A stretch of 64,000 nucleotides of DNA from Vampirovibrio sp. (GCA_021323475.1 JAJQJM010000001.1:141-64140), one strand, 5' to 3'; shown: positions 40,110-50,256, counted from the stretch's first letter. Notes: generated by a model from the letters alone, not told the origin. Numbers and translations are program-made.

Positions 40110-41488
40110 TGATTCAAGCGTCGCCATCCCATTGCGACACTTTAGTAATCGGTGCAGGCGTTAGCGGCCTGAGCGCCGCTTACCAGTTACATCAGGCCGG
40201 TAAAGCGGTGCGGGTCATTGAAGCGAGTCCCCATGCGGGGGGCCTTATTCGTTCCCACTGGGAGGCAGGATTTTTAACCGAAGCGGGCCCCAATACCTTT
40301 CCCAGTACCGCCACGGAAATTCTGGACCTTTGCGAACAACTCCGGTTGGAGCCCCAGGCGACACACCCGAACGCCAAAAAACGATATTTGTATTTGAATG
40401 GCAAGCTGACGGCCCTGCCCGGCCATCCTCTGCAAGCCGTAACCACTCCCGCATTATCGTTATTCGGGAAGCTAAGAGCGCTGCAAGAACCCTTCCAGCC
40501 CAGAACTCGCACCAATGACATCAGCGTGGCCGACTTTCTTGAAAATCGCGTTGGTAAAGAAGTGGTTGAGCGCTTGGCGGATCCGTTTATCAGTGGCATT
40601 TATGCCGGCAATGTGGCCGAACTCAGCCTGCCCGCCGTGTTCCCTAAATTGTGGCAGTGGGAGCAATCCGCGGGAGGTTTGCTGAAAGGGGCCAGGCAAG
40701 CAAAACGAGCTTCCCGCCATTCAAATACTCCCAAAAAGCCTATGCAGCTTTTGAGCTTTGCAGGCGGTCTGGAATCGTTCATTAGCGCTCTGGTAAACGC
40801 CCTTCCAGAAGGAACCTGTCACTTCGGGCACAGTGTGACCCAAGTGGAAGTGACCGAAACAGGCTACCAAGTACAGTTACACACCGGTGAGTTGTTGACA
40901 TGCCATCACGTAATCATCGCCACCCCGGCGTATACTGCGGCGCGTTTAATCCATTCCCTGAGTGAATCGGGCAGCAACGCCTTGCAAAATATTCCCTATA
41001 ACGGATTGGCCGTGGTGCATTTGGGCTTTAACAAAGCCGATATTCCCCATCCCCTGGACGGATTCGGCTGCCTGATTCCCCGCCGGGAAAAATTACCCCT
41101 ATTAGGCACAATTTGGGCCAGCAGCCTGTTTCCCAACCGGGCACCGGAAGGCCAGGTGCTGCTCAGCAATTTCATCGGCGGCGCGCATCACCCGGAAATT
41201 GTGGGGTGGCCACCGGCCAAGATTGAGCAATTGGTACTGCGGAATTTGCAAACCGTTTTTAAGATTCCTGAACCCATCCAGCCCACCTATAGCCAAGCAC
41301 TGATTTACGACAAGGCCATTCCGCAATACAGTCTGGGCCACTTAAACAGAATCCAAACCATTGAGGCCGAGTTGCAAAAAAATCCGCATTTGCATTTATG
41401 CGGGAACTATTTACACGGCATTGCCCTGAACGAATGCGTGAAATCCGGCCTTGCTGCCGCCAATGCGATTATCGACCCTTTAAAATAA
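40109..41488 (+). CDS. hemY: FAD-dependent protoporphyrinogen/coproporphyrinogen oxidase (HemY family)
   Basis: N-terminal dinucleotide-binding GAGVSGLSAAY and overall HemY length and pattern. Confidence 0.8.
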   Translation: MIQASPSHCDTLVIGAGVSGLSAAYQLHQAGKAVRVIEASPHAGGLIRSHWEAGFLTEAGPNTFPSTATEILDLCEQLRLEPQATHPNAKKRYLYLNGKLTALPGHPLQAVTTPALSLFGKLRALQEPFQPRTRTNDISVADFLENRVGKEVVERLADPFISGIYAGNVAELSLPAVFPKLWQWEQSAGGLLKGARQAKRASRHSNTPKKPMQLLSFAGGLESFISALVNALPEGTCHFGHSVTQVEVTETGYQVQLHTGELLTCHHVIIATPAYTAARLIHSLSESGSNALQNIPYNGLAVVHLGFNKADIPHPLDGFGCLIPRREKLPLLGTIWASSLFPNRAPEGQVLLSNFIGGAHHPEIVGWPPAKIEQLVLRNLQTVFKIPEPIQPTYSQALIYDKAIPQYSLGHLNRIQTIEAELQKNPHLHLCGNYLHGIALNECVKSGLAAANAIIDPLK

Positions 41489-49074: not shown

Positions 49075-50256
49075 TTGCAGGCTTTAAACTCATCTTATCC
49101 AGCCAACCCGATCAGAAATATGGACACCCCAATGCCTTACACCTCTCACCCTGTCAAACATGGCTTTGCTCCGGCACTTACCGGTTGGTATCTTGCCAGC
49201 CACCGGGACCTGCCCTGGAGAAATACAAACAACCCCTACCATATATGGCTGTCTGAAATTATGCTTCAGCAGACCCAGGTAAAAACCGTAATTGATTATT
49301 ACCACCGTTTTCTACAGCAATACCCAACCATCCAATCCTTGGCGGAGGCCCCCCTCGATTCCGTTCTCAAACTGTGGGAAGGGCTGGGCTATTATGCCCG
49401 GTGCCGCAATTTACATAAGGCCGCACAAATAATTATGTCCCAGCATGGGGGCGAATTTCCCAAAACACTGGCGGAAGCGGAAGCGCTTCCCGGCATCGGC
49501 AAAAGCACCGCAGGCGCCATTCTAACGTTTTCGTACGGGCAAAAGCATCCGCTGCTGGACGGCAACGTAAAACGCGTATTAAGTCGGATATTTGATATTG
49601 AAGAAGATATTCAACAAGCCGGTGTCATCAAACGCATGTGGCAACATTCCACCGATTTGCTAACGGAAAGCGATGATCCGTATCACTATAATCAGGCCAT
49701 TATGGAACTGGGCGCCACGGTATGCCTTCCGCAGAATCCGCGTTGTTTGCTGTGTCCGGTGAAAGAATTTTGCAGCGCGCAAGCGCATGGCACTCAACAT
49801 GAGCGCCCCGTGAAAAGCGCTAAAAAGACCACGCCCCATTTTGATATTGGTGTTGGGGTGATTTGGCATAATGGCAAAATTCTGATTCAACAACGCCCGG
49901 CTGAAGGGTTGCTTGGGGGGCTGTGGGAATTCCCCGGCGGCAAACAGGAACCCGACGAGGCAATAAATGAAACCATCTTGCGTGAAATCCGCGAGGAATT
50001 GGAGCTGGATGTTACGGTACGGGAGCTTATCACCACTGTAAAGCATGCGTATTCCCACTTCAAAATTACCTTGCATGCGTATCATTGCGACTATATTAGC
50101 GGCACACCGCAGCCCAAAGCCTGCGACGCATGGCAATGGGTCACCCCGGACGAGCTGTCGCAATTCGCCTTTCCCAAAGCCAACAAAACCGTGCTGGAAA
50201 TTGTGGTGGCCGAATGGCACAAGCAAAACGCCAGCGCTCCGCAACGCATTCCTTAA
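49075..50256 (+). CDS. mutY: A/G-specific adenine DNA glycosylase
   Basis: HhH-GPD motifs WLSEIMLQQTQV…LPGIGKSTAGAI, a 4Fe-4S Cys cluster (CLPQNPRCLLCPVKEFC) and a C-terminal NUDIX-like domain. Confidence 0.85.
   Translation: MQALNSSYPANPIRNMDTPMPYTSHPVKHGFAPALTGWYLASHRDLPWRNTNNPYHIWLSEIMLQQTQVKTVIDYYHRFLQQYPTIQSLAEAPLDSVLKLWEGLGYYARCRNLHKAAQIIMSQHGGEFPKTLAEAEALPGIGKSTAGAILTFSYGQKHPLLDGNVKRVLSRIFDIEEDIQQAGVIKRMWQHSTDLLTESDDPYHYNQAIMELGATVCLPQNPRCLLCPVKEFCSAQAHGTQHERPVKSAKKTTPHFDIGVGVIWHNGKILIQQRPAEGLLGGLWEFPGGKQEPDEAINETILREIREELELDVTVRELITTVKHAYSHFKITLHAYHCDYISGTPQPKACDAWQWVTPDELSQFAFPKANKTVLEIVVAEWHKQNASAPQRIP

Follow-up and report, generated by a model that had tools for sequence, protein, structure and literature searches.

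A lineage-specific locus between hemY and mutY in Vampirovibrio-like bacteria: very probable vertical inheritance, glycine-rich repeat proteins and a candidate regulatory RNA

Is the low-GC stretch that separates hemY from mutY in a Vampirovibrio sp. genome a piece of acquired DNA or a locus that this group of bacteria has inherited, and what do its genes and spacers encode? The question arises from a first-pass annotation of a 64-kb window of this genome (GCA_021323475.1, JAJQJM010000001.1:141-64140; positions below are those of the window, the whole stretch analysed), which described 41469-49075 as a genomic island inserted between the two genes, either horizontally acquired or rapidly evolving. 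Comparison with orthologous or homologous contigs of other genomes (labelled L002 and so on) leads us to conclude that the locus is very probably ancestral, vertically inherited and specific to Vampirovibrio-like bacteria (Vampirovibrionales, Melainabacteria), and not an insertion. The flanking genes were identified by Pfam as those for protoporphyrinogen oxidase (HemY) and MutY, and every annotated gene between them lies on the minus strand. The genes of the locus, two of which encode proteins with tandem glycine-asparagine-alanine (GNA) repeats, are:

41469..43562, minus strand: gamma-class N6-adenine DNA methyltransferase (MTase) of 697 residues, matching Pfam Eco57I, N6_Mtase and MmeI_Mtase over residues 88-362
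43977..44207, minus strand: acidic 76-residue protein, isoelectric point (pI) 4.05, with seven relatives at 68-99% identity, all of 76-77 residues
45128..45445, minus strand: acidic 105-residue protein behind a strong ribosome-binding site (RBS), its L033 orthologue being 51% identical
45973..47166, minus strand: 397-residue repeat protein, made up of N-terminus, alpha domain, (GNA)6, helix, (GNA)21 and GGGY
48251..48718, minus strand: 155-residue paralogue, with a Gly/Ala-rich N-terminus, the same amphipathic helix, (GNA)16 and GGGGGGY, and no alpha domain

Inheritance and composition of the hemY–mutY locus

The same genes are found at the same place in related genomes. In L002, an uncultured Vampirovibrio-like Melainabacteria genome, hemY, the MTase gene, the 76-residue gene, the genes for GNA proteins of 359 and 149 residues and mutY follow one another in the order and orientation seen in the window, and the GC dips as well; L003 (V. 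chlorellavorus NCIMB 11383) has the gene set of L002 with GNT instead of GNA repeats. L033 carries hemY, the MTase gene, the 76-residue gene, a 100-residue gene and a 379-residue GNA protein before its contig stops short of mutY. L016 has mutY, a 291-residue homologue without long repeats and the MTase, with hemY not adjacent, and L020, the most distant of these, has mutY, a 441-residue homologue, a 69-residue orthologue of the 76-residue protein and hemY, with no MTase. Overall, orthologues of the MTase occupy the same place in L002, L003, L004, L006, L016, L033 and L036, and orthologues of the 76-residue protein are present in L002, L003, L004, L006, L020 and L033. Low GC at third codon positions (GC3) and low-GC, strand-biased spacers are seen again in every orthologous locus, and in none of the close relatives examined are hemY and mutY adjacent. 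Identities to the proteins of the window are:

HemY: 81% in L033, 71% in L002, 56% in L003, 50% in L020
Alpha domain of the 397-residue protein: 84% in L033, 67% in L002, 46% in L003, 45% in L020
76-residue protein: 87% in L033, 71% in L002, 50% in L003, 45% in L020
MTase: 63% in L033, 53% in L002, 47% in L003, absent in L020

Identities of the locus proteins drop in the same order (L033, L002, L003, L020) as those of the flanking genes; the HemY of L004 (V. chlorellavorus Vc_AZ_2) is also 56% identical to that of the window. Because five relatives keep all or most of the genes in place and with the same composition, and with identities congruent with those of the flanks, the reading of this stretch as a horizontally acquired or inserted island fails. 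The same genes at the same locus with similar composition are the observation that the first-pass annotation had itself named as speaking against its proposal.

The compositional signal behind that proposal is present, if smaller than first described. GC of 41469-49075 is 0.483 against 0.533 in the remaining window, and in 500-nt windows it dips to 0.39-0.45 at 43.5-44.7, 47.0-48.2 and 48.75-49.25 kb and climbs to 0.56-0.60 over the repeats, so that windowed GC does differ from the flanks, but the same dips occur at the orthologous loci. The five non-coding segments have a GC of 0.40-0.445 rather than 35-40% and fall within the range of the other intergenic DNA of the window (0.36-0.54), and hence the spacers are not unusual in themselves; what is unusual about the locus is their number. 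The coding fraction is indeed reduced, to 0.57 against about 0.83 outside, but a length of 1 kb is attained by a single gap (47167-48250, 1084 nt), and the remaining ones measure 920, 527, 414 and 356 nt. On the plus strand these segments contain G at 0.17-0.20 and C at 0.23-0.27, in keeping with the G depletion noted at first pass, which is explained by the purine-rich transcribed strand of the leaders. Codon choice is atypical as well, with a GC3 of 0.44-0.56 in the locus genes against 0.647 ± 0.047 in 48 background open reading frames (ORFs), that is, 2-4 standard deviations under background for all of them. The GC dip results from AT-rich promoters, leaders and spacers together with the low GC3 of the genes. 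The best conserved DNA in the entire locus is the nominally non-coding part at 43.6-43.97 kb.

We consider the island explanation very improbable; a recent insertion is already refuted, and the weaker form of the explanation would place the acquisition far back, at the root of the Vampirovibrio lineage. The GC lower by five points and the depressed GC3 speak for an island, as do the presence of a methyltransferase, genes of this class being often mobile, and its absence from L020, and also L005, a distant relative in which hemY is followed by tmk with none of the locus genes. Against it stand gene content, order, motifs and composition that are common to relatives down to 50% HemY identity, the congruence of locus and flank identities, and the restriction of close relatives of the genes, besides the methylase, to Vampirovibrio-like loci; distant relatives of the domain of the 397-residue protein do occur outside such loci. 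The first-pass remark that an integrase, a tRNA and a direct-repeat boundary are missing is borne out: ARAGORN found no tRNA in the window, Pfam no mobility domain in any ORF scanned and the repeat scan no direct repeats flanking 41469-49075, and the region has no similarity to phages or viral contigs and a single low-complexity match to plasmids. The locus therefore resembles classical genomic islands in its lower GC, atypical codons, low coding density and a methyltransferase among its genes, and differs from them in being fixed in place across the family and in lacking an integrase, tRNA, direct repeats and mobile-element similarity.

Some observations weigh against strictly vertical inheritance. 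The repeat genes are missing at this site in L004, the absence of the MTase from L020 means that the locus is not immutable, and the low GC3 could be the faded trace of a very old acquisition. In L004 the locus (13900-21335) is broken past the 76-residue gene, with no repeat genes and no mutY; an unrelated 353-residue protein, a MerR-like regulator and a nitrilase-like protein follow there instead. The locus is thus stable and lineage-specific, yet plastic and evolving faster than its flanks, and to this extent the other half of the first-pass description, a rapidly evolving accessory locus, is correct: MTase identity to L002 is 53% where that of HemY is 71%, the repeat number goes from 27 down to 11, GNA is replaced by GNT, the MTase is missing in L020, and the 105-residue gene is confined to the closest relatives. 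Several assemblies (L001, L006, L034-L038) break within or at the edge of the locus, many contigs with the 76-residue gene are only 1-2 kb long, and a 476-kb JGI contig stops just beyond the MTase; these breaks are probably due to the GNA repeats.

The MTase, called an orphan Eco57I-type enzyme at first pass, is a solitary methylase. It consists of the methylase domain and a long C-terminal region with no nuclease domain, and its matches in PADLOC and NCBIfam cover the methylase part alone of type IIG and BREX PglX models. The type IIG profiles align from about position 300 onward to MTase residues 70-540, only about 88 residues precede the methylase domain, and the N-terminal nuclease domain of type IIG enzymes was not found in the protein. 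No restriction endonuclease lies beside it, the neighbours being hemY and the 76-residue gene, and PADLOC matched nothing but the methylase. The absence of a cognate nuclease and the fixed chromosomal position across species recall the orphan methylases Dam and CcrM, from which the MTase differs in its Eco57I/MmeI-like gamma class, its long C-terminal region and its absence from L020. About 40 nt upstream of its start, within 43563-43640, the motif TTTTCTTCC is invariant in all aligned genomes, V. chlorellavorus included, and may belong to the promoter or the leader of the MTase gene. Beyond the other end of the locus, a 70-residue membrane-like ORF beginning with MFFALICLILVGL (50336-50548) lies upstream of glcD and is found in the same position in L002, L003, L016 and L020.

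Shared upstream motif, leaders and a conserved RNA element

The four small genes of the locus have a common sequence in front of them. Against an expectation of 0.2, the window has four copies of the decamer TGTTTTTATT; every copy is on the minus strand, and one stands ahead of each of the 76-, 105-, 397- and 155-residue genes. The longer form GCAATT-N13-TGTTTTTATT is present three times (0.1 expected), in three of the four units, and also precedes the orthologues in L002, L003, L016, L020 and L033. The motifs, leader features and terminators are:

44335..44344, minus strand: box TGTTTTTATT of the 76-residue gene, the surrounding 50 nt being invariant in five genomes
45617..45645, minus strand: GCAATT-N13-TGTTTTTATT of the 105-residue gene (repeat family D3)
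47464..47535, minus strand: GCAATT-N13-TGTTTTTATT and leader start TAGAAGAAATTGGAGGGCAACA... of the 397-residue gene (repeat family D4)
48933..49004, minus strand: putative promoter motif and conserved leader start of the 155-residue gene, the copy at 48933-48990 being 91% identical to that of the 397-residue gene
47355..47410, minus strand: leader hairpin of the 397-residue gene (leader minimum free energy z = -4.0), kept in four leaders with little covariation
48816..48863, minus strand: conserved leader hairpin of the 155-residue gene
47186..47197, minus strand: leader motif GAGAGCGCAAAT of the 397-residue gene, ending 19 nt before the start codon
48735..48746, minus strand: leader motif (A)GAGAGCGCAAAT of the 155-residue gene, ending 16 nt before the start codon
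45904..45938, minus strand: intrinsic terminator of the 397-residue gene, a G+C-rich hairpin then TTTTG
48197..48230, minus strand: intrinsic terminator of the 155-residue gene, hairpin CAGGGCAG...CUGCCCUG then UUGCUU

The 45 nt on the 3' side of the box, beginning with TAGAAGAAATTGGAGGGCAACA, are 91% identical between the two repeat-gene paralogues, and a core 22-mer of this leader start is identical in L002, L025, L029 and L033. We infer that TGTTTTTATT would play the part of an extended -10-like element, and GCAATT that of an activator site or an atypical -35, with transcripts starting at the conserved AGAAGAAAUUGG and leaders of about 330, 250, 165 and 120 nt. Readings of the motif as a sigma-28, sigma-54 or canonical sigma-70 site, judged by eye, do not fit, and a consensus scan gave a sigma-70-like site for the 76-residue gene only. 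The arrangement suggests four single-gene transcription units with one shared promoter type and long purine-rich 5' leaders, and the four small genes are probably co-regulated. The 76-residue unit terminates at the terminator of the RNA element described below, and no terminator was mapped 3' of the 105-residue gene.

Both long leaders of the repeat genes contain a stable hairpin (z = -4.0 and -2.0) and, immediately 5' of the Shine-Dalgarno sequence, (A)GAGAGCGCAAAT; of 12 orthologous leaders, 10 have this motif. A scan of metagenomes with a 19-mer from the leader returned three true loci (L025, L026 and L029) and seven chance matches, and no further members of the regulon came from it. In L016 a second copy of the motif (9427-9455) lies 340 nt upstream of that of P0002 and precedes no ORF; it may be what is left of a short paralogue that has been lost, or it may drive a non-coding transcript.

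The best conserved part of the locus, directly 3' of the 76-residue gene, contains the following features:

43632..43940, minus strand: non-coding element of about 310 nt, candidate small RNA (sRNA) or 3' untranslated region (3'UTR) of the 76-residue gene
43745..43848 (approximate), minus strand: central long hairpin with the 11-nt apical loop UUGCGCUCUCU, from RNAalifold
43790..43801, minus strand: AUUUGCGCUCUC, the apical loop of the central hairpin with its neighbours, exact complement of GAGAGCGCAAAT
43621..43668, minus strand: intrinsic terminator GAUGAGAAC-loop-GUUCUCAUC with a U run, the loop ACAUUCGCUCUCC being invariant (read from the sequence)
43703..43846, minus strand: 47-codon ORF inside the element, open in all eight aligned genomes

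The element is 89% identical to its counterpart in L002 and 98% identical to that in L033, where the hemY coding sequence reaches 68.5% and 75% and the MTase gene 62% and 68%. Two nearly invariant blocks of about 100 nt surround a variable, hairpin-forming centre in the alignment of eight genomes. The central hairpin is predicted to have 32 pairs, with 92.7% of cells paired and compensatory double changes at five pairs, and its covariation score of 0.181 is reached by none of 500 shuffled alignments (0.126 ± 0.018) and exceeds that of slid controls (0.05-0.11). When the divergent versions of V. chlorellavorus and L020 were included, RNAalifold gave little, the MAFFT alignment of the centre being unreliable. 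The terminator stem also covaries, in L020 (GAGGAC/GUCCUC) and in L004. Divergent homologues of the element lie 3' of the same gene in L003, L004, L006 and L020, and since L020 has the element and no MTase, the element belongs with the 76-residue gene and not with the methylase. Rfam has no match in the window at the gathering score, and none in 43400-49200 at E<=1.

On this evidence 43632-43940 is probably a functional RNA, though not all observations point that way: the whole element folds no better than shuffled sequences (z = +1.3), and it holds an ORF open in all eight genomes. This ORF, which spans 46-47 codons, varies by a 3-nt indel that keeps the frame and has the Shine-Dalgarno-like GAAGGAAG upstream, might encode a micro-protein or make the element a dual-function RNA, and it is a candidate for the third of the three small RBS-bearing ORFs counted at first pass, the 76- and 105-residue genes being kept in relatives. 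We regard it as rather unlikely that the element has no trans-acting role and is the 3' part of a two-gene operon with a 47-residue micro-protein, or a plain 3'UTR with its terminator. The open frame, its indel and GAAGGAAG, the poor folding score, a consensus scan that found no separate promoter for the element, and the absence of the complementary loop from V. chlorellavorus would all agree with such an arrangement, but the invariant 100-nt blocks lie outside the ORF, whose middle is the most variable part, and the compensatory changes support an RNA helix that takes in the start codon. Moreover, no such ORF can be recognised in the V. chlorellavorus group, where a hairpin follows directly 3' of the 76-residue gene, and neither a micro-protein nor a plain 3'UTR explains the exact 12-nt complementarity to both leaders.

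This complementarity is the basis for proposing a target of the putative RNA. The sequence GAGAGCGCAAAT occurs exactly three times in the window, in the loop (read on the plus strand) and on the minus strand at 47186-47197 and 48735-48746. The duplexes predicted with the repeat-gene leaders have energies of about -22 kcal/mol, those with the leaders of the 76- and 105-residue genes -8 to -12, and a C/U-rich stretch and the terminator loop are predicted to pair additionally with the Shine-Dalgarno regions. These values come from short-segment duplexes and counts of exact complements, which replaced whole-length duplexfold because the latter gave long spurious duplexes. The exact complement is 12-13 nt in the window and 11 nt in L002 and L033, between partners that are both of low complexity. 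It is conceivable that the invariant loop and the C/U-rich stretch base-pair beside and over the RBS of the two repeat-protein mRNAs and so control their translation; such regulation by base pairing is a serious proposal that we nevertheless put a little below an even chance. Two findings tell against it. Shuffled controls have a mean complement of 8 nt, such chance matches being common because both partners are low-complexity, although single complements of 11-13 nt were reached in only 0-14 of 300 shuffles. In V. chlorellavorus, further, the leader motif is kept and the RNA lacks the complementary loop, so pairing is not the sole reason for the conservation of the motif.

Among known regulators, the element resembles RsaE/RoxS-type and 3'UTR-derived sRNAs in its intrinsic terminator, its invariant apical loop on a covarying stem, its C/U-rich stretch before the terminator and its complementarity beside the Shine-Dalgarno sequences of two candidate targets. 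Unlike them it is long (about 310 nt), may carry a small ORF, is not in Rfam and has its predicted targets in the same locus.

The two small acidic proteins, both with a pI of about 4.1, match no family in Pfam, NCBIfam, PHROGs or PADLOC. The AlphaFold2 (AF2) model of the 76-residue protein is of low confidence (predicted local distance difference test score, pLDDT, of 61), too uncertain for a fold search. The 105-residue protein has just two further relatives among 5.8 billion proteins; in its L033 orthologue the C-terminal half is conserved and the same promoter-like motif stands in front. Next to its gene lies

44490..45127, no strand: segment of about 640 nt unique to this genome, for which neither blastn nor tblastx gave a match in L033, in L002 or in any other locus fetched

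This segment has a GC of 0.48-0.50 and an 18-nt inverted repeat (44968-44985 / 45006-45023), and its overlapping ORFs of 79-99 residues have no Pfam match. The spacer at about 47560-48200, between the terminator of the 155-residue gene and the putative promoter of the 397-residue gene, likewise has no counterpart in L002 or L033, and contains a plus-strand terminator-like hairpin at 47655-47674. A view of the long non-coding stretches as functionless, either pseudogenes in decay or neutral spacer, would suit these two segments, but it is quite unlikely for the stretches as a whole, since 43.6-43.97 kb, the promoter regions and the leaders are better conserved than the adjacent genes.

The GNA-repeat proteins

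The two paralogous (GNA)n genes recognised at first pass were confirmed. The 397-residue protein has an uncharged N-terminus with no Sec signal, an all-alpha domain at about residues 40-215 and an amphipathic Met/Leu-rich helix at 265-285; its AF2 model has a pLDDT of about 90 over 40-215, and the remainder is disordered apart from the helix, with values below 50 in the (GNA)n tract. Both paralogues contain 23-31% Gly and no Cys, Trp or His, and have a pI of 8.8-9.4. Orthologues of the short form are found in L002, L003, L025 and L029. Species differ in the number of repeats, the long form having between 27 and 11 units and the short form between 16 and 0. In the 397-residue gene the 27 units are encoded by 13 distinct 9-mers that differ at synonymous sites, and so the peptide repeat is kept by selection and not a product of recent slippage.

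Neither protein reaches the threshold of any family in Pfam, NCBIfam, PHROGs or PADLOC, in agreement with the first-pass remark that no function is described for them: no library names them. Matches of the repeats to collagen, tail-fibre and HRP models were below threshold and low-complexity, and were rejected as compositional. The alpha domain has no fold match in the PDB, nor did the family profile find a sequence match there, and a literature search on GNA/GNT repeat proteins and Vampirovibrio secreted factors turned up no relevant work. The 397-residue protein has only two close relatives in a set of 5.8 billion clustered proteins. A profile search of 1.84 billion representatives returned 68 distant ones, of which one comes from a genome assigned to Myxococcales and none of the 10 scanned has a Pfam domain.

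Members of this family share a layout of an uncharged Ser/Thr/Asn/Tyr-rich N-terminus, the alpha domain, low-complexity tandem repeats (GNA, GNT, AAGDAN and others) and an amphipathic Leu/Met/Gln helix, with a terminal GGGY in Vampirovibrio-like members. Among the distant relatives, the median number of charged residues within the first 25 is one. In five or six of them a Sec or lipoprotein signal replaces the uncharged N-terminus, which suggests that the alpha domain works outside the cytoplasm. In L018, a contig of a genome assigned to Myxococcales, an adjacent 474-residue protein (2095-3519) shares the amphipathic helix and AGDA-type repeats and has a different globular domain; P0023 of L031, with 1038 residues, fuses the alpha domain to that globular domain, which indicates that modules are shuffled within the wider family. 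The neighbours of the distant members in L018, L031 and L032 include no secretion-system or other informative genes.

These features lead us to propose, tentatively, that the repeat proteins leave the cell by a non-Sec route, act outside it and behave in a harpin-like manner, associating with the envelope of the target cell, as would fit a predatory, cell-attached lifestyle. We hold this reading of them as exported harpin-like factors to be plausible, though somewhat short of probable. Like the harpins HrpN, HrpZ, HrpW and Hpa1/HpaG, they are glycine-rich and cysteine-free, have no Sec signal and place an amphipathic Leu/Met/Gln-rich helix beside glycine repeats; both groups include small members of about 14 kDa as well as members fused to a globular domain, and in both the producer attacks a walled photosynthetic cell. 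Their architecture comes closest to that of harpins such as HrpN and Hpa1. The proteins differ from harpins in their strict tripeptide repeat and basic pI, and Pfam found no harpin homology at E <= 0.01, which counts against the proposal, as do the absence of secretion-system genes adjoining the locus and the fact that a missing signal peptide is equally compatible with a cytoplasmic protein. We know of no injectisome genes in the Vampirovibrio lineage. Flagella and a type IV system have been described in the V. chlorellavorus genome (PMC4451040). The window contains a flagellar cluster on the plus strand (20940-29826: SLT-domain protein, FlgF, FlgG, FlgA, FlgH, FlgI, FlgN, FlgK and FlgL), which implies that the organism is flagellated; it lies 12 kb from the locus with nothing linking the two, and none of its genes has the TGTTTTTATT box.

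A cytoplasmic role, in which the proteins would form a disordered scaffold or condensate or be tethered to the membrane, for example in organising the cell pole or division, is an unlikely alternative in our estimation, though one of some weight. It accounts for the lack of a Sec signal in Vampirovibrio-like members and of adjacent secretion genes, disorder is predicted for roughly half of each protein, and the amphipathic helix could target a membrane. The Sec and lipoprotein signals of distant members, however, suggest an extracytoplasmic alpha domain, and the uncharged Ser/Thr/Asn-rich N-termini and the C-terminal GGGY may be taken to resemble export or sorting signals.

The repeat itself invites comparison with collagen. 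A perfect Gly-X-Y period over 63 and 48 residues, a heptad-like helix immediately upstream of it, and sub-threshold matches to Pfam Collagen (E = 6e-5, 23.2 bits, cutoff 27.2), NCBIfam Scl1/Scl2 (26 bits against a cutoff of 400) and PHROG tail fibres could mean that (GNA)n forms collagen-like triple helices nucleated by the adjacent helix, giving surface fibres or adhesins like Scl or phage tail fibres. This is improbable. Every match is under its curated cutoff and limited to the repeat, whose pLDDT is below 50; proline and charged residues stabilise bacterial collagens, and the repeat has neither. P0001, P0002 and P0003 are without a Gly-X-Y tract and the short paralogue of V. chlorellavorus has two units, and as homologues do without the tract, a triple helix is not a conserved feature. 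The proteins thus share with Scl1/Scl2 and with phage collagen-like tail fibres the uninterrupted Gly-X-Y beside a helix and the weak profile matches, and differ from Scl1/Scl2 in lacking LPXTG and a signal peptide as well as Pro and charged residues, in scoring under all cutoffs and in having a repeat that is dispensable in homologues.

Another partial parallel to the proposed harpin-like factors is found in the PE_PGRS proteins of mycobacteria, which have an N-terminal helical domain followed by polymorphic Gly-Gly-Ala/Gly-Gly-Asn repeats in strain-variable number and are exported independently of Sec. The repeat proteins resemble them in the conserved helical domain, the variable-number Gly-rich repeats behind it and the lack of a Sec signal; they differ in having no homology in a Pfam scan, in phylum, and in that no type VII system is expected.

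Significance of the locus

Taken together, an inherited locus with a four-gene regulon, harpin-like exported proteins and control by an RNA is the combined reading that we find somewhat more convincing than not. Neither the protein family nor the promoter motif nor the RNA appears to have been described before, and in kind they resemble known things, namely secreted glycine-rich repeat proteins, solitary methylases and base-pairing sRNAs. A bolder version, judged from sequence features and unlikely in all its parts at once, would have the locus as a self-contained module private to Vampirovibrio-like predators, in which the RNA of about 310 nt beside the 76-residue gene gates translation of the two GNA paralogues through its AUUUGCGCUCUC loop and a C/U-rich anti-Shine-Dalgarno stretch, and proteins of new fold, exported independently of Sec and made under one dedicated promoter type, act in a harpin-like way on the envelope of the algal prey.

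For the calling of genomic islands, the locus is a caution that low GC, GC3 and coding density can be inherited traits of a regulatory-RNA-rich locus and not signs of recent transfer. To our knowledge, no predator belonging to the cyanobacterial lineage other than Vampirovibrio has been cultured, and commercial cultures of Chlorella are destroyed by it. For its mechanism of attack there have been only genome-based guesses (PMC4451040). The locus offers a conserved and tightly organised, lineage-specific and probably co-regulated set of genes for unusual glycine-rich proteins, a protein domain family that has neither a known fold nor an annotation and counts 68 relatives in 1.84 billion representatives, and a putative dedicated promoter motif together with a candidate regulatory RNA outside Rfam.

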